From assembly GCA_963842945.1 (NCBI GenBank), contig CAWJIM010000024.1:128001-192000 (forward strand): a stretch of DNA of 64,000 nt, read 5' to 3'. The position numbers were made by a program, and so were the translations under genes. Origin of the DNA: an uncultured Gemmatimonadales bacterium (lineage in GTDB: Bacteria; Gemmatimonadota; Gemmatimonadetes; Gemmatimonadales; GWC2-71-9). Shown here piece after piece: positions 6,969-62,255 of the stretch; position 1 is the first letter of the stretch, and each line of letters starts with the position of its first letter. The notes beneath the pieces are model-generated. The model saw only the letters and a list, made by a program, of their open reading frames with translations, made no database searches and was not told the DNA's origin.

Positions 6969-8175
6969 ATGGAGGGCGGATCACTCTTGTCCTCCTGCTT
7001 GCCGCTTGTGTCCCCAGTCATCCCAACGATTCGCCCAGTCCCGTGCTCCGGCTGAAGATCGATTGGCAACCGGTCATGCATTATCTCGACTCGGCGGTAG
7101 CCAGAGGTGCCGCTCCCGGTGCGGTGCTGGGCGTAATCCATGACGGCGAACGCTTCGTCTATGGCACCGGCCGCCTCGGTGACCTCGATGCCAGCCGTCC
7201 CGGCCCCAGCACTGTGTACGACCTCGCTTCTTTGACCAAGGTGGTCGGGCTTACCACCGGGCTGATGTTGGGGGTGAGCGAAGGAAAGATCGAGTTGGAC
7301 GCTCCGGTGCAGCGTTACGTTCCCGCATTCGCCGGGCCGGAGAAGGCAAGAATTACGGTACGCCTGCTTCTGGCTCACGCCGGAGGGCTCCCGGCCTGGA
7401 GACCGTTGTTCCGGGAGGTATCCAGCCGGCAAGACGCCTTCGCGCTGGCAGACACCACTCCCCTCGAATATCCCCCCGGGTCTCAAGACGTCTACTCCGA
7501 TCTGGGCGCGATCGTTCTCACCCAAGTCTTGGAGACCGTCTACCATCAGCGCATCGACTCGCTGCTGGAGCAGCGGATCTTTGGCCCCCTGGGCCTAGCC
7601 TCGTTGCGCTATCGACCGCCGCCGGCCTGGCTTTCCCGCATCGCCCCGAGCGAGATGGACCCCTGGCGCGGGCGAGTCCTTCGGGGCGAGGTGCACGACG
7701 AAAACGCGGCGGTGATGGACGGCGTCTCCGGTCACGCCGGGCTTTTTGGCTCGGTGGAGGATCTGCTGGGGTTTGCGGAATGGATGCTGGAACAGGCGGA
7801 CGGGCGGAAGGCGGTCGGGCGGTCGGATCGACCGGGAGCACGGATGGGATGGACCGACCGTCCGACCGTCCGACCGTCCGACCTTCCGTCGTCCAGACAT
7901 TCACCACCCGCCAGAACCTCGTCCCCGGCTCCAGTCGCGCGCTGGGCTGGGACACGCCGGACTCTGGGAGCAGCTCGGGCCGCCTGCTTTCGCCGCACAG
8001 CATCGGCCACACCGGCTTCACCGGTACCTCCATCTGGATCGATTTCGACCGCCGGGTCGCCATCGTGCTGCTCAGCAACCGGGTGCACCCCACCCGGAAC
8101 AACCCGCGCTGGAATCCGGTGCGTGCCGGCATCGCGGATCTGGTCATGACCACCCTCTTCGAGGACGTGCGATGA
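6965..8175 (+). CDS. Beta-lactamase-family serine hydrolase (AmiE-like); frame break inside an internal repeat
   Basis: SLTK (SxxK), YSD, GEVHDENA, GHAGLF and GHTGFTG motifs. Confidence 0.85.
7795..7890. repeat. Palindromic element with tandem 8-mer arms inside the serine hydrolase gene
   Basis: Left arm ggcggacg-ggcggaa-ggcggtcg-ggcggtcgga; right arm (ccgaccgt)x3-ccgacctt-ccgtc. Confidence 0.85.
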
Positions 8176-10024: not shown

Positions 10025-10393
10025 ATGAGCGGTGTCGAGCAGCAGTCCCCCGCCACCGGCTTCAGCATGGTGCTGACGCCGAGGGCGGCCGAAGAGGTGC
10101 AGAAGTTCATCACCCAGGAACAGGTTCCAGCCGAGAGCGCCGGCCTCCGGGTCAGCGTGCTTCCCGGTGGCTGCTCCGGGTTCAAGTACAGCCTGAACAT
10201 CGAAGAGCGGCCGCTGGAAGATGATATGGTGGCGGAGGTCAACGGCGTCCGGGTCTTCGTGGACGGCTTCAGCGCCCAGTATCTCACCGGCATCACCATC
10301 GACTACGTGACCTCGATGCAGGGCTCCGGCTTCACGTTCAACAACCCCAACGCCTCCGGCGGGTGCGGGTGCGGCAGCAGCTTTACTGCGTGA
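10025..10393 (+). CDS. A-type Fe-S cluster carrier (IscA/ErpA/HesB family)
   Basis: GGCSGFKY and CGCGSSF motifs; AAGGAGA RBS. Confidence 0.93.
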   Translation: MSGVEQQSPATGFSMVLTPRAAEEVQKFITQEQVPAESAGLRVSVLPGGCSGFKYSLNIEERPLEDDMVAEVNGVRVFVDGFSAQYLTGITIDYVTSMQGSGFTFNNPNASGGCGCGSSFTA

Positions 10394-10513
10394 GCGGTAG
10401 GCGGTGAGCGGTAAGCGGGCGGCCAGAGAAGATCGGATTCTCTGGCCGCCTTCGCGTGTCGCGCTGCCCGCTCACCGCTCACCGCTTACCTTCTCACCGC
10501 TCACCGCTCACGC
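10388..10513. repeat. Palindromic element with tandem 7-mer arms and an internal hairpin
   Basis: Left arm (gtgagcg)-type x4; right arm (cgctcac)-type x6; inner stem ggcggccagagaa/ttctctggccgcc. Confidence 0.88.
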
Positions 10514-10515
10514 TC

Positions 10516-12005
10516 TTGAGCACACGCCGACCTCGTCGTCGTCGTACTCTACTTCGTCTTTACCCTGGGCCTCGGCCTATGGGTGGCCCGGCGCCAACGA
10601 AGCGCGACCGACTACTTTCTCGGCGCGCGAGACCTGCCGGCCTGGGCCATTCTCCTCTCCATCGTCGCCACGGAGACCTCGGCGCTCACCGTCATCTCGG
10701 TGCCCGGGATCGGCGCGCGCTCCGACCTGACCTTTCTCCAGCTCACCTTTGGCTATCTGATCGGCAGGATCGCCGTCGCCCGCTGGCTCCTGCCCGGATA
10801 CTTCCGGGGCGAGCAGGAGACCGCCTATGCCCGGCTGGAGTCGCGCTTCGGCGTGGGCACACGCCGCCTTACCTCTACCGTCTTCCTGGTCACCCGATTC
10901 CTGGGCGATGCCGTGCGGGTGTTCGCCAGCGCGATTCCGCTGGCGCTGGTCACCGGCTGGAGCATGCCCACCTCGATCGTGGTGATGGGGATCGTCACCA
11001 TGATTTACACCTGGTTCGGCGGGTTCAAGGCGGTGGTGTGGACCGACGTGCTCCAGCTCTCAGTGTATCTGGCAGGAGGCATCGGGGCCCTGCTGGTGGC
11101 GTGGAGCATCGCGGGTGGCCCAGGACACGCGCTCGACCTGGCGGGCCAGGCGGGGAAGCTCAGAATCATCGATGCTCAGGTGGACTTCACCCACACCTAC
11201 ACGCTGCTGGGTGGGCTGGTGGGTGGAGCGCTGTTGTCCGCCGCCTCACACGGCACCGACCACCTCATCGTGCAGCGACTGCTGGCCACCCGCTCGCTGC
11301 GCGACGCCCGCATCGCGCTGATCGGCTCGGGGGTGATGGTGATCCTGCAGTTTGCCCTCTTCCTGCTGGTGGGGTCAGCCATCTGGGCCGCTGGGCTGGC
11401 GCCGTCGAGTGTGCCCGGAGACGAGCTGTTTCCCTCGTTCGTCCTGCACTATCTGCCCACCGGACTGGCCGGCCTGGTGGTCGCCGGGATCCTGGCCGCG
11501 GCCATGGGGACCCACAGCTCCGCCATCAACTCGCTGGCCTCGTCGGCGACGCATGACCTGTACGCGTCCTGGACCGGCCGGCAGGATCCCGCCCACTGCT
11601 CAGGTCGGCCGGCTGCTCTCGGCCATGTGGGCACTGGCCTTGGTGGGAGGAGCGCTCTTCTTTCACTTCGCCGCCAGCGGCAAAGACACTCCGGTCGTGG
11701 TGCTCGCGCTCTCGATCGCTTCGGTCACCTACGGGCCGCTGCTGGGCACCTATCTCCTGGCCACCCGCTGGCCTCGGGCCCGAAGCCGCGATGTGGTGGC
11801 GGCCGTTGCGGTGACGGTCAGCGCGATGCTGATCGTGGTCTTCGCCCGCCAGCTGTCGGCACTCGGAGGGCCGGCCTGGCTGACCCCGCTCGGCCGCCTT
11901 GCCTGGCCCTGGTACGTCCCCCTGGGCACCTTCCTGTGTGTCGCCACCGGCGTCTCCCTCAGCTACCTTCCCCCGTCACGGCAGGCAACGCTTAGCCGCA
12001 GATAA
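10516..12005 (+). CDS. Second sodium:solute symporter; frameshifts near 10522 and 11600
   Basis: DYFLGARDLP, SIVATETSALT, GGFKAVVWTD and GTDHLIVQRLL motifs. Confidence 0.88.
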
Positions 12006-12133
12006 CGTTGCCCAGATAAACGCAGATGCGCTCATCGCGGATACTCCGCCAGCCGCATCCGGGTCAGCACCAGCTCGGCAATCAGCCGTGACTGAACGCG
12101 TTATCTGCGTTATCTGCGTTCATCTGCGGCAAA
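11992..12133. repeat. Palindromic element with tandem 9/10-mer arms (cgcagataa)
   Basis: Left gccgcagataac...cagataaacgcagat; right ttatctgcgttatctgcgttcatctgcggc. Confidence 0.85.
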
Positions 12134-14692: not shown

Positions 14693-15516
14693 GAGCTGCT
14701 CTTTCCAGGGAGAGTGAAGGAGATTCTGGTGGTGCCGGGAATTGAGGTTCCGTCCGGCGCTCGGGCCGGGGTGAAGCGGAAGGCGCGCATGACCTCGTCG
14801 AACTTCTTGGCGTAGTCGCGATCTTTGATCTGAGGTTCGACCAGGTAGCGCTCGACTCTTCCGTCGGGCCGAACCCAGAAGGTCACGTTGAGCGAAAGCC
14901 CGCGCAACTCCTTGGGCGGATTGTCGAAGGGGAAGGCCATGTCGCGAGGCTCGGGAGGCCGCGCCTTCCCGCCTTCACCACCACCGCCGGTGCCGCCGCC
15001 CGCTCCCGCCGTTCCCTTGCCGGAGCCCTGACCACCTTGGCCGGCATTCCCGGCCCCTGCTCCGCCGCCTCCGCTTCGAGCCGTGTCAGCGACCGCAACC
15101 GCCGGCTGCCGACTCGCACTGGTGTCCGCGTTCTCCGGCGCGACGACCTTGGGCTCGGGCGGAGGAACCGGACGACTGACAACAGGGCGCGGAGTCGGAA
15201 CGGGAGGAGGTGGCCTGTGCGCCGGAGGCGTTTCCGCCTTCGGTAATGAAGGCAGCGTAATATACGCCACCCGGGGACCTCCGCCACCGCCACCGGCGCT
15301 CGCACTGCCCGACCGTCCCGGAAAACCGGGAGCCGGTGTCCGGCCCCAGATCTTCTCTCCCCTGGCCACCAACGCTGCAAGCAACACAACGTGCAATCCC
15401 AGGGACAGAATCAGCCCGAGTGGGCGCTGGCGGGAAACTGGCGGCTTGAGGGTGAATGGCGCAGACGGGCGCGTGGCTGCCTCAGGTTGGAGGACGAGAA
15501 GCGTTCGACTGAACAT
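14689..15516 (-). CDS. TonB-like protein (TM anchor, Pro/Gly-rich linker, C-terminal domain)
   Basis: SLGLH TM motif, Pro-rich then Gly-rich linker, C-terminal FRFTPAR. Confidence 0.7.
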   Translation of the reverse strand: MFSRTLLVLQPEAATRPSAPFTLKPPVSRQRPLGLILSLGLHVVLLAALVARGEKIWGRTPAPGFPGRSGSASAGGGGGGPRVAYITLPSLPKAETPPAHRPPPPVPTPRPVVSRPVPPPEPKVVAPENADTSASRQPAVAVADTARSGGGGAGAGNAGQGGQGSGKGTAGAGGGTGGGGEGGKARPPEPRDMAFPFDNPPKELRGLSLNVTFWVRPDGRVERYLVEPQIKDRDYAKKFDEVMRAFRFTPARAPDGTSIPGTTRISFTLPGKSSS

Positions 15517-15553
15517 ACACCAGTGACGTTGCAGCGGGACACGAGAGCACGGC

Positions 15554-15704
15554 GTAGGACGGCAAAGACGGGAAAGTCGGGAAGGACGGGAAGGTATGCG
15601 AGTCAGGAAAAAGAGGCAGTCGGGGGTGTTCTCCCTGACTGCCTCCTCTCCCATGTCAGCACACCTTCCCGCCCTTCCCGTCCTTCCCGCCTTTCCCGTC
15701 CTAC
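15554..15704. repeat. Palindromic element with tandem 9-mer arms (gacgggaag) and an inner hairpin
   Basis: 46-bp arms 15554-15599 and 15659-15704 match 40/46 as reverse complements; inner stem gaggcagtcggggg/ctccctgactgcctc. Confidence 0.9.
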
Positions 15705-16136
15705 TTCGGCGCCTGCCTGCTGCTTCTCCGCCTCCCGGGGGGTGAACCCGATGATCTGGACTCCCGCGCCACGGGCCACGTCCATCGCCTCGATCACATC
15801 CTGATAGAGCCGGTTCGGTCCGGCCTTGATGAACAAGAGCTTGGCCGGACGCTGATCGTAGATCGCGTGGATCTGGGTGTCCAGCTGGTCCCGGGGGACC
15901 GGCTGGCCGTTGATGGAGTAGCCTCCGCCGTCGGCCAGCTCGAGCACGATCTGGCTGGGCGGTGCCTTGGTCGTCTGGGGCGTATCGGGCGGCGGCACCT
16001 GGACATCCAGCGCCATCCGGCTCAAGGGCTGGGTGATCATGAAGATGATCAGCAGCACCAGGAGCACGTCGATCATCGGCGTGACGTTGATGTCCGACTG
16101 CACCCCACCGGAGGAGGCCCCTGCGGTCATTGCCAT
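15701..16136 (-). CDS. exbD: ExbD/TolR; true stop probably the TAG at 15701
   Basis: INVTPMIDVLLVLLIIFMI motif. Confidence 0.88.
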
Positions 16137-16138
16137 GG

Positions 16139-16603
16139 TTACTTCTTCTCCTTCTTGTCGTCATCGCCGAACACGACCGCCTTGTTCGGTTCGGTGATCG
16201 CAGCCATGACCCGGACGCCGGAGCGCCGCGCCGTTTCCACGGCTTCCTGTACCTTGGAGTACTTCAGCTGATTGTCGGCCTTGAAGTACAGGATCTTGTC
16301 CTCGGTCCGGGAAGCGAAGGTCGAGCGAAGCTGGTCCTCCAGCGCGCCGCCCGGGATGGGCCGGCCATTCAGGAAATAATTCCCGCTCTGGTCGATGCCC
16401 AGCACGACTTCGTTCTCGCCTTCGGGCCGGGGATCCAGGTTCTTTCCCTTGGGCAGGGTGGCCTTGAACCCGGCCGCGATCAGTGGGGTCACGATCATGA
16501 AGATGATCAGGAGCACCAGCATCACGTCGATCATCGGCGTGACGTTGATGTCCGACTTGACCGCCGTCCCGCCGGCGCCGCCGCTACCCGTGGATATGGC
16601 CAC
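16139..16603 (-). CDS. exbD: ExbD/TolR
   Basis: INVTPMIDVMLVLLIIFMI and YFKAD motifs. Confidence 0.92.
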   Translation of the reverse strand: MAISTGSGGAGGTAVKSDINVTPMIDVMLVLLIIFMIVTPLIAAGFKATLPKGKNLDPRPEGENEVVLGIDQSGNYFLNGRPIPGGALEDQLRSTFASRTEDKILYFKADNQLKYSKVQEAVETARRSGVRVMAAITEPNKAVVFGDDDKKEKK

Positions 16604-17333
16604 TGCCGGTCACCGCCTTCTGGGCCTGGAATTCCTTGGTGAAGATCGAACGCCCGAACTCGCTCCCCACGCTCTTGATCAGGTAGTCGATCAGCTCCTT
16701 GGAGCCGTACGTCATCTCGACCGTCAGATTCTCGATCTTGGTGGTGAAGTAGTTGTAGGCCCACACCGCGGGAATCGCCACCATCAGGCCGAAGGCCGTG
16801 GTGATCAGCGCTTCGGCGATACCGGCGGAGATGCCGGCCAGACCGCCCGAGGCGCCCTGCTGCGCCATGCCCACGAACGCGTTCACGATACCCATGGTGG
16901 TGCCGAGCAGTCCGACGAAGGGCGCGGTCGAGCCGACCGTACCCAGCACGCCGAGTCCGCGCTTGAACTCCGACAACACGATCAGCATCTGCCGCTCGAC
17001 CGCCCGCTCGGCCGAGTTGATGTCGGCGGCGGTGATGGTGGCGCGGTCCCGCAGCAGCGGCTTCACCTCGAAGAGCGCCTCGCCCACGACGCGCGACAGG
17101 TGGCTCTTCTTGTTCTTCTCCGCCAGCGCGATCGCCTGGTCCAGGTTCTCCTCCTGGATGGCGCGGGAGAACTGGGGCGCGAACTTCCGGGTCTCGCGCT
17201 CACTCCGCTTCAGCTGGATGAGTTTGGTGATGACGATGGTGAGGGAATAGATGGACATGATCGCCAGGACGACCACGATGCCCTTGGCGAAGGCACCCAT
17301 CTGACCCCACAGGTGAAGTAGATCTACACTCAT
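16584..17333 (-). CDS. exbB: MotA/TolQ/ExbB proton channel
   Basis: APFVGLLGT and GIAEALITTAFGLMVAIPA motifs. Confidence 0.93.
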   Translation of the reverse strand: MSVDLLHLWGQMGAFAKGIVVVLAIMSIYSLTIVITKLIQLKRSERETRKFAPQFSRAIQEENLDQAIALAEKNKKSHLSRVVGEALFEVKPLLRDRATITAADINSAERAVERQMLIVLSEFKRGLGVLGTVGSTAPFVGLLGTTMGIVNAFVGMAQQGASGGLAGISAGIAEALITTAFGLMVAIPAVWAYNYFTTKIENLTVEMTYGSKELIDYLIKSVGSEFGRSIFTKEFQAQKAVTGSGHIHG

Positions 17334-17376
17334 GTTGTGTTGCCTCCAGGGGGAACGAAAGCTACGGCTGCGAGCG

Positions 17377-18075
17377 CTATTGCTGCTTGAATGAGACTGC
17401 CTGCTGGACCAACTGCCGGACCGGCCGCCCCTTGAACTTGGCCGGCTTGAAGACGCTCTTGAGAATGGCCTCCCGGGTCGGCTCGCCGAAGGCCGGGTGG
17501 CTGGTCTTCATGATCTTCAAGGAGTTGCCTTCCACGTGGCCGGTGGTGTCCACGATGAACTGCACCTCGACCCGTCCGGTTATTCCGGCGCTCGCCAGCA
17601 CCGGCGGATAGCGCGGCTGAGGCTGGGAGATGACCTGCACCGGGTCATCCAGCTGGGCCTCGAGGAACACTTCGCCGGTTACCGGACCGGTACCGCCCGC
17701 CACGCCGGTCCCGATGCCGCCCTCCACACCCTTACCGGTGAAGTCCCGGGGATCGAACGGCTTCTCGTTCAGATCGATCGGCGGAATGTCCTTGGGGATG
17801 TCGGTCGGCGCCACCACCGTCTGGAACCCCTTGGGCGGCGGGTTGGCCGCAACCACCACGTCCGGCGGGGGCTGGTCCGGCGGCGGCTTGGGGGGCTCCG
17901 GCGGCTTGAGGAACACCATGGTGGTGTCCACCGGACGGTTCTTCACGCTCTCGGCCACGCCCTGCGTCGCCTTGATGGCGCCGAAGATGATGAGGCCGTG
18001 GATCAGGAACGATAGAACCGTCTGTCCAACCGTGCGCTGATTCTTCTGCTTGGATTCGATCAGGTTCTCGAACAC
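17377..18075 (-). CDS. tonB: Energy transducer TonB
   Basis: SFLIH anchor, Pro-rich linker, PRYP...GRVEVQFIVD...FKPA C-terminal domain. Confidence 0.9.
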   Translation of the reverse strand: MFENLIESKQKNQRTVGQTVLSFLIHGLIIFGAIKATQGVAESVKNRPVDTTMVFLKPPEPPKPPPDQPPPDVVVAANPPPKGFQTVVAPTDIPKDIPPIDLNEKPFDPRDFTGKGVEGGIGTGVAGGTGPVTGEVFLEAQLDDPVQVISQPQPRYPPVLASAGITGRVEVQFIVDTTGHVEGNSLKIMKTSHPAFGEPTREAILKSVFKPAKFKGRPVRQLVQQAVSFKQQ

Positions 18076-18385
18076 GCAACTACCTCCAGGGGGAGGGTGA
18101 TCGTGCCCGGAAAGTAAGGCGCGCTGAAAACACCTGCTTTGCCCTCAGATGTCATTTCGATTACAGCCGCATTAGCAACTGCAACTGCTGCATCCGAAGG
18201 GCGGACACAACCCTACTCTGAGCTACAGAACTGCGGCGTGATCTGACTCACACGGCCTCGGCCTACGTTATCCCTCGCCCGGGTTTTGGCAAGCAACGTC
18301 CGCAGTACGGTGTCTGCGTAACTGCGGACCGCACTGGATGGTTCAGGATTGTCACGACAGGCAGAACCGGGTCGAGTCTTAGCCA

Positions 18386-18790
18386 ATGATTCACCACAGA
18401 GGCACAAAGGACACAGAGGGTCCGGCTCCCCAACTGACTCACGACATCGTGGGTGCAGCCATCGAGGTCCACCGGCAACTTGGACCAGGCCTCCTGGAAT
18501 CAGCATACGAAGCTTGTCTCAGTAGAGAATTGTCATTCCGGGGAATCGACCACAAGAGGCAGGTTTCACTGCCAGTGGAATACAGAGGTCTTCAAGTGGA
18601 ATGCGGCTACCGGCTGGATCTTGTAATCGCAAACGTGATCATCGAGGTCAAAGCAGTTCAAAAGGTACTTCCCATTCACCGTGCCCAGGTACTCACCTAT
18701 CTAAAGTTGACGGGTTACCGCCTTGGCTTGCTGATCAATTTCAATGTTGAAGTACTTCGCGCCGGTATCTACCGGATCATCAATGGATGA
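18386..18790 (+). CDS. GxxExxY protein (putative PD-(D/E)XK nuclease)
   Basis: [10 protein letters not shown] (GxxExxY), [20 protein letters not shown] and GLLINF motifs; more AT-rich than its neighbours. Confidence 0.92.
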
Positions 18791-18826
18791 CGTTACCTCT
18801 GTGTCCTCTGTGCCTCTGTGGTGAAT
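18389..18826. mobile_element. Putative element: GxxExxY gene bounded by 31-bp inverted repeats
   Basis: 18389-18419 ATTCACCACAGAGGCACAAAGGACACAGAGG matches the reverse complement of 18796-18826 at 30/31. Mobility is inferred. Confidence 0.6.
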
Positions 18827-18905
18827 TCGCGGAGTTGCATTCCTGGCTCGCAAAGCGGTCTCGCATTGAACCTTCGGTTACGCCCTGCGGCTGTCCTGCC
18901 TGGTT

Positions 18906-20359
18906 TCAGCCGGACTTCGAATTCGGCTTCGGCAATCGCACGATAAACGTCGAACCTCGCCCCGGCCGGCTTTGCACCGTGATCGATCCGCCGTGCGCCT
19001 CCGCGATCCATTTGGTGATCGCCAGGCCCAGGCCGGTGCCGGGGCGCGCGCCGGTGCGCGAGCGGGCCTGGTCCGCCCGCCAGAACCGGTCGAAGATGTT
19101 CGGCAGGTCGCCGGGCGCGATGCCGATGCCGCTGTCCCGCACGGTAAACGTCACCGCTCCGTCGTCCTGTTCCAGATTCAACGCCACCGTCCCGCCCTGG
19201 GGCGTGTACTTGATGGCGTTGGTCACCATGTTGAGCAGCATCTCCCGGATCCGGTGCCGGTCCACCGCCAGCCGGACCGGGGTCTCGGGCATGCTGTGCA
19301 CCGCGCTCACCCCCGCCTGCTCGCCCAGCATTCCCGCGGTCTCCGCCACATCCGCCACCACCTCCCGGAGATCGCTTTCCTCCACCGCCAGCGGGGCCCG
19401 GCCTTCATCCGCCCGGGCGAGCGTCAGCAGGTTCTCCACCATCTCCGTCATCTGATTGATCTGGGCCAGTGTCTCGTCCAGCGACTGCAGCATTTCCGGC
19501 GGCGTCCCCGGATGGATCAGCGCCCGCTCCACCCCGGCCCGCAGCACCATCAGTGGCGTCTTGAGCTCGTGGCTGGCGTCGGCGGTGAAGCGGTGCAGGC
19601 TGGAGAAGCTGCGCTCCAGCCGGGCCAGCATGCCGTTCACCGTCGCGGCCAGCCGGGACGATCTCGTCGCCGCTGAGCGGTACCGCCAGCCGCCGGTGCA
19701 GGCTGGTGCCGTCGGAGATGGCGTCCACCTCGTCCATGATGCCCTGCACCGGTCTCAGGCTGGTGCCGGCCAGCCAGTTCCCCACCAGGATGGCGCCCAC
19801 CAGGATCACCGGAGCGATCAGCAGCATCGAGCGAAGCAGATCAGACGGTCCGAACGAGGCCTGCCGGGTGGGCGTGGCCACCAGGAGCCCGCCGATGGCG
19901 GGGCCGGCGTTGTCGATCGGCGTCACCAGATACTGCATGCTGCCCACCGGCGGGCCCACGTTGATCAGCGCCTGAATGGCGGCTGAGAGGCAGGGTGTCG
20001 AGCGGCGCGGTCAGGCTCTCCAGCGCCGGCGCGCTGAGTCCCCGGGCAATGTCGGAGAGCGCCAGAAGCTGGCCGGCGGTGTCGGCGACGATCAGGTAGT
20101 CGCGCGCGGCCTCGAGGTAGGCGCTGATTCCGGGGTCCAGCGTGGGATTGAGATTGGACGTGGTCACGATCCGGCCCAGCACCTTGTACGACTGGGCGAG
20201 CCAGCGCTGCGCCAGGTCCGCTTCGAGGGTGAGGCGCTGGTCCAGCTCCCGCACGCTGGCCTGCCGGCGCTCGATGTAGAGCGCGGTTCCAAATGCCAGC
20301 ACCGTCACCGCGAGCGCCACCGTATACCAGAAGGTGAGTCGCAGGCGGATGGTCGCCAT
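18906..20359 (-). CDS. HAMP-domain membrane sensor histidine kinase; frameshifts near 19975 and 19655
   Basis: ASHELKTPL, NAIKY, DSGIGI and GTGLGLAI motifs; two TM segments. Confidence 0.9.
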
Positions 20360-20360
20360 G

Positions 20361-21029
20361 TCAGGCCTTTACGACGTACCCGACGCCGCGAACGGTGTGC
20401 ACCAGCTTCTGGGCGTGCCCGGTGTCCACCTTCTTGCGCAGCCGGTTGATCACCACGTCCACGATGTTGGTGCCGGGGTCGAAGTGATAGTCCCAGGCAT
20501 ACTCGGTGATCAGCGTCCGGGACATCACCCTGCCGGCGTGCCGCATGAGATACTCCAGCACGGTGTATTCCTTGGGCGTGAGCTCGATCCGCTCGCCGCC
20601 CCGCCTGACCTCCCGGGTCTCACCGTCCAGCTCCAGGTCGCCCACCTTCAGCACCGGAGAGCGGATCTCCTTGGGCCGGCGGCCCAGCGCCTCCACCCGG
20701 GCCAGCAGCTCCTCGAAGGCAAACGGCTTGGTCACGTAGTCGTCGGCGCCGGAGCGGAGCGCCTGCACCTTGAAGTCCACCGCGTCCTGCGCGGTCAGCA
20801 CCAGCACCGGCGTGGTGTTTCCCCGGTCGCGCAGGGTGCGCAACACCTCCAGGCCGTTCATCTCCGGCAGCCGGAGGTCCAGCACGATCAGATCGTAGCG
20901 CCCGCCCGAGGCGAGTCGCAGCCCTTCCATGCCGTCGTCCACCAGATCGGCGTGATAGCGCTGCTCCTCCAGACCGCGCTTGACGTACTGGCCCACGGTG
21001 CGGTCGTCTTCCACCACCAGGATTTTCAT
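20361..21029 (-). CDS. OmpR-family response regulator
   Basis: [25 protein letters not shown] and TVRGVGY motifs. Confidence 0.95.
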
Positions 21030-22536
21030 GGATGGACCGGCAGAAATACCCGGAACGTCGATCCCCGGCCGGGCTGGCTCTCCACTTCGATCCGGCCCCG
21101 GTGGTCCTCCACGATGCCGTAGCAGATGGAGAGCCCCAGCCCGGTGCCGCGCCCCGGGCGGCTTGGTGGTGTAGAACGGCTCGAAGATCTTGGACTGGTC
21201 TGCCCGGGGAATGCCCACCCCGTTGTCCTCGATCTCGGCAACCACCTCGTCCGCCTGGTTGGGATTGCGTCCGGTCCGCACCGTGAGCTTTCCCCGGCCC
21301 TCGTTCATGGCGTCCACGGCGTTCAGCATCAGCGCCATGAACACCTGAGTGAGCTGCTCCGCGTTCCCGGTGATGGGGGGAATCGAGCCGTCCAGCTCCC
21401 GGACCAGGCGTGAGCCGCTTGAACTTCTGATGGTGTTTCAGCAGGAACAGCGTCTCCTCCAGAACCGCGTTCAATACGACTCTGGCCTTGGCCTTTCCCT
21501 TGGGGCGGCTGAAGTCGAGCAGGCCATCCACGATCCGGGTGCAGCGGTCGACTTCCTTGTCGATGATCTCCAGATACTCATCCACCCTGGTCCGCTCGGC
21601 CGGCTTCAGGGCGTCCAGCCGCCCGCTGATCGCGGCGACGCAGGCGCTGATGGTCGCCAGCGGGTTGTTGATCTCGTGCATGACGCCGGCGGCAAGCTGG
21701 CCGATGGCCGCCAGCTTTTCGCTCTGCATGATCTGCCCCTGGATCCGGCGCGACTCGGTCACGTCCTCACCGATGGTGATCGACGTGGCTGATCTCGTCG
21801 CCGTCGAGCCGCATCGGAATCTTGCTCAGGCGGAAGGACCGGAGCTCGCCACCGAGGGTGACGTCGAGCTCGTCCTGCACGATCTCGCCGGTCTGGAAGA
21901 CCCGGTCGAAGTCGGCCCGGAGCATCTCCGCCGGCTGACGCGTCAGTACCTCGAACACCCGCCGGCCTACCACCTCATCCCGCCTGAGGCCGGGTGCGCC
22001 GACCTCCCGCTGCCGGTTCCAGAGCTTGATCCGATAATCCCGATCGATCACGTAGAGTCCCACCGGCAGGCTGTCGATCACCAGGCTGATGAACCGCCGC
22101 TGTTCCTCGATCTCGCGGGACTGGGCCGCAACCTCGATCGCGAGATCGGCCGACAGCGCCAAGGAGGCGAGGTAGGGCGCCAGCAGGTCGGCGATGATGA
22201 CCAGGATCTCGCGCTGTTCCGGGTCCTGCTCCGGAACCACCTCGAGCAGCCCCATCAGCGCCTCTTCGTGCTCCAGCGAGAGCCGTATCCCCGAGCCGTT
22301 GCGGGGAATGGCCTGCAGCGACTCCACCAGGGCCGGCTTCCCTTCTTCTCCAGGGGCGAGCTCACCGCTCGGAATCCACTGGTTTGCGGATCGCGAAACC
22401 AGACCATCACCTGGTCCGCCGGCAGCCCGGTCCGGAGCAGCTCCACCACGGCGGCCAGCGCGTCACCCGCTTCTCCGCCGGCGTTGAGCAGTTTGGCTGC
22501 CTGGCCCACCAGCGCCACTCCATCGGACGTCTTCAA
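21026..22536 (-). CDS. PAS-domain NtrB-like histidine kinase; several frameshifts
   Basis: [35 protein letters not shown] and GTGLGLSI spread across frames. Confidence 0.85.
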
Positions 22537-61349: not shown

Positions 61350-62255
61350 CTACTGCCCCGCTGCCACTCTGCCCCGCTGCCCCACTTCAACCGGCAGCTC
61401 GACCCGCTCGGCCCACTCCGTCCACGATCCGACATAAATGCGTCACTCGCGGATAGCTCAGCAGATTCCGCAGAGTGAAGTGGACGTGGCTGGCTTCGGT
61501 GGTGCTGTTGCAATACACGATGATGTTGCGGTCGGGGGTGATGCCCTGTTTGGCGTAGGCAGCCTTCAGCTCCGCCGGCGACTTCCAGACGTGCCCAAAC
61601 CCTTCCTGCGTCAGATCGTCCTGCCAGTAGTGGTTGATGGCGCCCGGAATGTGGCCTCGCCGCATCTGGGCTCCGGCCTGTCCAGCATATTGATCCGGCG
61701 GCCGCGCATCAACCAGCGTCGCGCTGCGGTCAATGATCGCCCGCCGCACCTCGTCGAGTGAAGCGCGCTCCGGGCGAAATGTGCCGAGAGGAAAGTTTAC
61801 TGCGACGAATCCTCGGGTACTCTCGGGCGAGAGGTCGCTGTTCCAGCTTCCACTTGAAGTACCCGCCGTTGAGCAGATACACCCGAGGATGCCCGAATCC
61901 CGCCAGCAGCCAGGCCACGAAGGTGGCGTCGATGTTCCGGGTCTCTCCTGCGCTATAGATCACGACCGGCCGGTCGAAGCTCAGACCCAGGCGGGAAAAG
62001 AGCTCGCTGTAGGCTCGCGCGCTCAGGAGCTGCATCGGAATTCCGCCGTCACTGGCCCGCAGACTCTCGGGATTGAGATACACCGCGCCCGGGAGGTGGT
62101 CTTTCAGGTAAATGAACACATCGGTTCGAACGTCGACGATGTTCACCGGCCCTTTCTTCAGCCAGGCAGCCAGCTCCTCGGTAGAGACCAGCTGGGGCGC
62201 GGGCGCCGCGCGTCAACAGGGTCGAGATCAGCAGCAGTACCGAAACCCCGCTCAT
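61350..62255 (-). CDS. Tandem-domain rhodanese/sulfurtransferase; frameshifts
   Basis: HLPGAV, LNGG, DARP, GHIPGA, VYCNST and YVGSWTEW motifs. Confidence 0.88.

Follow-up and report, generated by a model that had tools for sequence, protein, structure and literature searches.

We found that a small unit made of one gene and a pair of inverted repeat arms, carried by an uncultured Gemmatimonadales bacterium, is real, mobile and undescribed in the literature searched. Comparisons of sequence and structural models suggest that its mechanism is likely homing-like. The unit lies in a stretch of 64,000 nucleotides (the window), and its gene encodes a protein of GxxExxY, a very large family to which the literature searched gives no function. 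Its arms are paired tandem 7- to 9-mer repeats, of a kind noted but left unexplained in Geobacter since 2009 or earlier and in Xanthomonas since 2015 or earlier. The window locus joins this family and these repeats, and does so with population-level evidence: same-site replacement, flips and an interspecies tract. If the homing-like reading is true, the unit would be a mobile element without a transposase, its protein would be a nuclease of very small size guided by sequence or structure, and the whole would drive the flow of core genes from species to species.

A GxxExxY gene enclosed by periodic inverted arms

The gene occupies window positions 18386 to 18790 on the plus strand and encodes 134 amino acids. 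Its left arm (18389-18419, plus strand) holds three CRCNRAG words pointing inward, and the right arm (18796-18826, minus strand) is the inverted copy of the left. The arms are 31 nt each, are complementary at 30 of 31 positions and have 376 nt between them. They are the sole near-perfect long inverted pair in 17500-19800, where the other pair of 31 nt reaches 71% complementarity. The initial annotation, made from the sequence alone, had described the gene and its 30/31 repeats correctly. It had also described units of about nine letters; the periodicity is confirmed, and the unit length is approximate, since each arm consists of three heptamers (CACAGAG or CACAAAG) spaced 8 and then 9 nt apart. 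As it had further reported, the left arm opens at codon 2, with the ATG just outside the arm, and is translated into residues 2-11, and the right arm starts 5 nt past the stop codon.

The gene is flanked on the left by the host tonB gene (17377-18075, minus strand) and on the right by the 3′ part of a host histidine kinase gene (18906-19640, minus strand). Both neighbours lie on the strand opposite to the GxxExxY gene, which is richer in AT (GC 51.6% and GC3 55%, versus GC 65-69% and GC3 88-90% for the neighbours), again in line with the annotation. A leader with a hairpin at 18298-18329 precedes the gene (18297-18385, plus strand), and a short trailer (18827-18858) ends at the remnant of a REP-like palindrome. 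Direct repeats 3-12 nt long were sought up to 3 nt from where the arms end; as had been noted before, no target duplication was found.

Independent short-read data confirm that the element is real: in run X4, positions 18391-18764 were present with one difference, and one contig connected the tonB leader with the left arm. RNA contigs of three runs covered tonB and left the GxxExxY gene uncovered; as assembled contigs only, they say nothing about silence. In the folded transcript, the arms are predicted to form a 31-bp RNA stem masking codons 2-11 (z −4.7). Promoter or terminator consensus sequences had no match in 18000-19000, nor did Rfam families in 15000-22000. Downstream, single extra bases at window positions 19660, 19968, 21407, 21781-21782 and 23365 split kinase genes; these are probably sequencing errors of the window assembly, because three or four other runs lack them in their contigs.

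The protein is a predicted PD-(D/E)XK nuclease

The protein is a member of both TIGR04256 (141.9 bits; cut-off 35) and PF13366 (139.4 bits; cut-off 22). PF13366 was the only family among its family matches, which included no transposase family and no GIY-YIG, HNH or LAGLIDADG domain. Residues E38, D78, E87, K89, Q101 and Y105 were invariant in 30 out of 30 aligned proteins; we take them to be the PD-(D/E)XK active site (E...D...ExK) together with a RecB-type QxxxY motif. The predicted structure, of PD-(D/E)XK fold, had a mean pLDDT of 90 and was confident from residue 13 onward, with the arm-encoded tail disordered (below 50). Fold searches matched it weakly to restriction-like proteins, Cas4, lambda exonuclease and Hjc (Z up to 7.7), and these matches tilt to exonucleases (Cas4, lambda exonuclease) no less than to endonucleases. 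From the motif and the model, we infer that the protein is an active nuclease.

Among PADLOC defence models, the protein matched Cas4 and a DRT-linked PDDEXK model faintly (E 0.009-0.03) and none at E ≤ 0.001. An ESM Atlas search returned GxxExxY clusters only. Viral contigs with a single protein gave 14 pattern matches, of which 0 were confirmed; 50,697 phage records held no match, and eight plasmid records did. The available part of PMC3424549 lists the function of the TIGR04256 GxxExxY/PF13366 PDDEXK_3 family as 'Unknown' and mentions 'multiple transfers'. The window protein is a member of the family as described there, and arms and mobility are absent from the family descriptions searched. 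The literature searched, with subscription journals mostly beyond its reach, likewise held no function for the family and no link to repeats or mobility.

Arms accompany the gene across lineages

We compared the loci of 96 GxxExxY copies from 103 genomes of the genus, further known copies being mostly fragments; the tallies include genome G065, on which alone no claim depends. Inverted arms (score ≥16) were present at 69 out of 91 genus copies with enough flank, versus 2 out of 77 shifted controls. In other lineages, represented by the best 80 of 594 confirmed all-species loci, the figures were 59 out of the 78 with enough flank and 0 out of 69. A direct-repeat control passed at 17 of these 78 loci because many loci bear extra arms. 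By their record titles, the all-species loci presumably belong to more than ten phyla. These data show that the arms belong with the GxxExxY gene across lineages, and the survey of homologue flanks proposed by the initial annotation thus came out in its favour.

The arm word is CRCNRAG, with C1, C3, A6 and G7 invariant. The left and right arms shared the same modal word at 71 out of 85 loci, versus 19.5 by permutation. Mismatches between arms sit at the variable word positions and show no G.U bias (94 versus 75, p 0.17). Association of protein residues with words gave no clean code; the top columns (129, 18 and 90) were unclean and uncorrected for kinship.

Arm number did not clearly follow gene number in the genus. 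The initial annotation had suggested that repeat abundance might correlate with GxxExxY copy number; within the genus, the correlation was weak (rho 0.24, p 0.16, 37 genomes). Genomes without the gene still hold many arm pairs, and one 97%-complete genome had 63 arm matches and no GxxExxY gene. The median number of arm matches was 16.5 in genomes with the gene versus 6 in those without (p 0.023; kin are not independent). Family f3 had the gene in 0 out of 12 genomes and 0-3 arm matches. At one locus (L002, G024:C102), the 5′ end of the element is partly duplicated in tandem right after the stop codon, with an additional inverted copy of the arm.

One element has replaced another between tonB and the kinase gene

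The tonB and histidine kinase genes are syntenic across the genus. At 19 relatives' loci, the interval between them contained no element in 18, and one locus breaks inside the interval. The closest group varied: G114 carries the same element as the window, G098 a different intact one and G074 a deleted one, G068 and G093 retain left-arm stubs, and G072 has none. The comparison of this interval in relatives, also proposed earlier, therefore yielded presence/absence differences, stubs and empty sites.

The G114 element differs from that of the window at one position in the gene (fourfold sites, 1/69), and another close species has a 29%-diverged element at this site. Between G098 and the window, 32 of 52 fourfold sites differed in the gene, compared with 13 of 127 in tonB and 39 of 146 in the kinase gene, and 25% of the GxxExxY protein residues differed. 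The 90-nt leader of G098 is common to G093 and G072 and unrelated to that of the window, which G114 shares, so the leader was swapped along with the element. One element has taken the place of another at this spot. The unit had been put at about 440 bp; at this site, the exchanged unit exceeded the 440-bp span from arm end to arm end, as about 90 nt of leader changed too. The right edge of the swap is the end of the trailer.

Local hypermutation between the arms was considered as the source of the G098 difference and rejected: other same-site pairs (G000, the window genome, with G114, 1/69; G032/G064; G015/G104) are not accelerated, and the non-homologous leader also contradicts it. The REP-like palindrome at the trailer end is longer in G114, G098, G068, G093 and G072 than in the window and, in relatives, is a repeat separate from the arms. 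Its lengths and orientations vary among close species (window 18850-18870; L052, L053, L054, L056 and L057), and G093 is rearranged beside it. Inspection by eye also revealed a second, divergent tonB-like gene or remnant in the interval at five loci (L034, L036, L038, L067 and L035).

A low-divergence tract centred on the element

In 2405 aligned 500-nt windows, drawn from 1.44 of about 3.8 Mb, the median difference between G114 and G000 was 9.3%. Around the element, the two species are near-identical from 15910 to 21379 (mean 1.0%), with edges fading to about 15570 and about 21600. This tract of about 5.5 kb comprises 11 consecutive windows at ≤2%, the longest run among the 2405, and includes both tonB and the kinase gene. 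Its centre (18645) lies within about 40 nt of that of the element (18606), at a resolution of 500 nt. Four-taxon informative sites grouped G000 with G068 outside the tract (30:2 and 23:6) and with G114 inside it (13:47); given this shift, the recipient is likely to be G000. A G114-type organism is represented in contigs of four other studies and differs from the window by about 1-2% inside the tract and 8-11% outside. From these comparisons, the window element likely moved, together with about 5 kb of flanking DNA, from a neighbouring species.

The same two species share about five further low-divergence tracts, 3-7 kb long and devoid of such an element (G000 C19:213303-216301, C1:125159-128162, C22:18678-22048, C21:86268-93767 and C4:110594-114498), and we regard them as signs of ongoing gene flow between both. 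One of them covers what we take to be a Lon-type protease gene. Given these tracts, ordinary recombination is active and a given locus has about a 2% chance of falling in a tract. Both assemblies carry indel errors, and that of G000 is 6% contaminated; an assembly mosaic of G000, or ordinary recombination, could explain the tract.

Two further loci showed similar discordance. At one of them, a broken GxxExxY copy differs by 2.9% between G000 and G114, versus 9-11% in the flanks, and the G098 copy is 16-20% from the others, versus 6-14% in the flanks. At the other, an element-bearing 2.5-kb insert differs by 0-1.2% between G114 and G098, versus about 6% in the flanks. Unrelated passenger genes ride in this insert (L124:8616-10263, G114:C2); they are presumably catalase-like and cytochrome P460-like.

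Few sites, exchanged alleles and flips across the genus

The 96 genus copies occupied 26 sites: six sites held 24, 16, 9, 6, 5 and 4 copies, four held 3, four held 2 and twelve held one. The most similar pairs of copies share a site. The best different-site pairs were 90% and 83% identical, with the shared sequence stopping at or near the arms, and none of the 96 had a near-identical copy at a different site. Both gene orientations were found, at the same spot, at 3 out of 14 multiply occupied sites; the 24-copy and 16-copy sites each had a single orientation.

The nine-member site provided trees for both flank and gene, the flank tree excluding one of the nine whose left flank differs. The flank tree grouped G101 with G091 (97/95) and G018 with G113 (100/99); the gene tree contradicted it by grouping G113 with G091 (99/99). 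The G091 copy is flipped and carries the arm word of G113, so the word moves with the gene. A single clade of the three flipped copies was rejected (p-AU 0.026). Elsewhere, G093 and G072 have the same outer flank and arm and, by eye, opposite inner genes only about 70% alike. The 24-member site retains a lone right arm in G000, and sites with full elements in relatives can bear gene-less or one-armed relics.

Many genus copies were broken, and several pairs (G032/G064, G018/G113 and G015/G104) showed vertical descent with purifying selection. At deep distances, the genes exceeded their flanks in fourfold divergence; we discounted this as a sign of exchange, since GC-rich flanks saturate lower. 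The element is thus mobile but not in the manner of an insertion sequence (IS): it occupies few sites, at which alleles replace one another and flip. The initial annotation was right to propose a discrete, transposase-free mobile unit of gene and arms, given the patchy presence and the lack of a transposase family match. Autonomous multiplication of the IS or RAYT kind was not supported, as copies are confined to few sites and are often inherited vertically under purifying selection.

Gene-less pairs and a sister class with four-helix-bundle genes

The initial annotation had counted five gene-less pairs of this architecture in the window. We located four inverted pairs (7795-7888, 10390-10515, about 11995-12130 and 15556-15702); the fifth candidate, at 61353-61383, is a single array. 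Their proposed role as relics similar to those of RAYT/REP systems probably holds for one. The pair at 11995-12130 uses the CGCAGAT word of the other GxxExxY subfamily and, judging from that word, is a probable relic of the GxxExxY gene-plus-arms class. The words of the other three are those found beside four-helix-bundle (TIGR02436) genes instead of GxxExxY genes. Among these, the 9-mer pair at 15556-15702 (G000:C24:143567-143700) has a polymorphic spacer, because a contig of run X5 holds 86 different letters instead of 145 within it. The left arm of this pair coincides with the left edge of the interspecies tract.

A census of G000 found at least about 65 periodic pairs, with a first periodicity filter that missed the window element itself. 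Dozens of gene-less pairs occur per genome, and divergence beside such pairs was not lower than background (48 near versus 46 far windows, p 0.26). Other pairs in G000, built of 7-mers, 8-mers and different 9-mers, enclose four-helix-bundle genes, and all four ORFs tested matched TIGR02436. Seven such genes lie between periodic inverted arms (C22:359-848, C20:95412-95937, C19:147230-147768, C19:448034-448589, C19:117594-118200, C2:102171-102485 and C24:241785-242099). Each of the seven has its own arm word, and one weakly matches the DGR Avd model. CRCRRAG arrays flanked 0 of the 10 four-helix-bundle loci shown on both sides; arm words are cargo-specific. The G114 copy of the element at C19:117594 is far more diverged than its flanks, and a GxxExxY element of G011 occupies a site where G000 has a four-helix-bundle element. 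One 8-mer arm pair (G000:C23:318418-318811) surrounds no cargo gene and apparently ordinary host coding sequence, presumably the linker region of an acyltransferase.

Proposed mechanism and alternatives

The occurrence of arms across lineages, the few sites, the different alleles and orientations at one site, the conflict between trees, the transfer with flanks and the decay suggest a homing-like cassette, to which we assign a probability of about 0.45 on the strength of sequence, structural models and analogy. From binding onward, the steps would be as follows. Bound to the CRCNRAG repeats, the predicted nuclease would introduce a break at an arm pair or close to it, and a cassette copy on incoming DNA would act as the repair template. 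The arms would thereby serve as putative binding sites and crossover points, whose symmetry would permit either orientation, and long flanking tracts would arise if donor and recipient were close enough for homologous repair. A filled element may escape its own enzyme, for instance if its 376-nt loop hairpins poorly; alternatively, the predicted RNA stem over codons 2-11 would limit expression, as it also would if the gene were an accessory of the host. We favour the homing-like reading because gain, residence, decay to stubs, re-occupation and co-transfer of flanks fit free-standing homing endonucleases. More tentatively, and somewhat against the odds, these elements may form a new minimal selfish class in which a nuclease of about 120 residues recognises the short-word arrays at its own ends, cuts arm pairs remaining in the chromosome and is copied in through repair, either way round; the paired 7- to 9-mers of many bacterial genomes would then be its landing pads and scars, and any one event could drag kilobases of core genes across species.

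The gene may instead be an accessory nuclease, useful or addictive to the host (in defence, in abortive infection or as a toxin held by the RNA stem), that moves by ordinary homologous recombination, has regulatory arms and flips by passive inversion. Long residence at fixed sites under purifying selection, the general interspecies recombination, the copy that moves with unrelated passenger genes, the stem masking codons 2-11 (z −4.7) and the faint matches to Cas4 and the DRT-linked PDDEXK model (E about 0.01) all agree with such a role. We nevertheless consider it unlikely, since it leaves unaccounted for both the dozens of gene-less pairs per genome and the flank-discordant alleles that arrive flipped; in addition, many copies are broken, no defence model matched at E ≤ 0.001, and the arms lack the G.U strand bias (94 versus 75, p 0.17).

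The absence of that bias, with mismatches at variable word positions, also counts against an RNA-level element resembling intervening sequences, in which RNase III would excise the arm stem and render insertion harmless, with spread by drift and recombination. The 31-bp stem of the folded transcript and the shared modal words (71/85 loci versus 19.5) suit this idea, and there is a precedent: according to the available part of PMC4990558, RNase III cuts the 28-bp stem at the ends of the 23S intervening sequence (IVS) of Coxiella, this IVS contains a four-helix-bundle ORF, and passage of IVSs from one species to another is reported. The window element lies outside rRNA and runs antisense to the genes on either side, which leaves no host transcript in need of rescue, and the periodicity goes unexplained; we judge this account very improbable. 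A further possibility is that the arms themselves are the working part, put in place or swapped, in a MITE- or REPIN-like manner, by a shared machine of the host or one that acts in trans, and that the GxxExxY and four-helix-bundle genes are passengers or accessories. The GxxExxY protein may indeed not be the motor, because an unrelated non-nuclease protein shares its architecture, even at one and the same site; many arm pairs in genomes without the gene, and the pair around apparently ordinary host coding sequence (C23:318418), are also in line with this view. A shared machine is nonetheless rather improbable given words that are specific to their cargo, a catalytic motif invariant in 30 out of 30 proteins, family f3 lacking gene (0/12) and arms (0-3 matches) together, and neither target duplication nor near-identical dispersed copies.

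Comparison with known systems

IS elements and MITEs have terminal inverted repeats, and REP/REPIN-RAYT systems combine a single enzyme gene with numerous satellites made of short inverted repeats. The element resembles the latter in this layout and IS/MITE in its terminal inverted repeats, here with repeated words, and differs from IS/MITE in having no transposase or DDE enzyme, no target duplication and a best different-site pair of 90% among 96. Unlike RAYT/REP systems, it has no HUH (Y1) enzyme, and its satellites did not scale clearly with gene number within the genus.

The available part of PMC2988022 names co-conversion and an intergenic position as hallmarks of free-standing homing endonucleases. 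As described there for the seg and mob enzymes of T4-like phages, the element is a small intergenic nuclease gene, faithful to its site, with different genes at one site, probable flank co-conversion and a cycle of gain, decay and loss. Unlike them, it is chromosomal, has a PD-(D/E)XK rather than a GIY-YIG or HNH protein whose nuclease activity is predicted only, and has periodic inverted arms and either orientation.

ORF-bearing 23S rRNA IVSs of Coxiella and Leptospira (S23p/TIGR02436) are likewise about 430-450 nt long, low in GC and horizontally transferred, with one ORF in the loop of a terminal stem of about 30 bp (PMC4990558, available part); ORF-bearing rRNA intervening sequences are also treated in the accessible part of a CPR preprint (10.1101/2024.02.27.582315). 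The sister elements in G000 carry TIGR02436, the cargo family of these IVSs. The window element differs in lying between tonB and a kinase gene, in its nuclease-fold cargo and periodic arms, and in having a stem that is predicted only. By their defining tests, the element is thus none of IS/MITE, RAYT/REP and rRNA IVS.

The closest likeness in the arms is to paired sites of two other bacteria, as presented in the parts of the sources available. The class 2 sites of Geobacter metallireducens have the consensus TCTCCGTS[Y] ×3 (PMC2700814), and Xanthomonas has paired GGGAATC repeats (PMC4692102). Like the arms here, these sites have three tandem words, opposite-strand pairing and variable spacing. 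Those parts of the two sources present them as sites that bind regulators or as sequences that form quadruplexes, without a link to a gene or to mobility. Reverse-complemented, the Geobacter class 2 word (PMC2700814, available part) reads as the CACGGAGA arm word found here.
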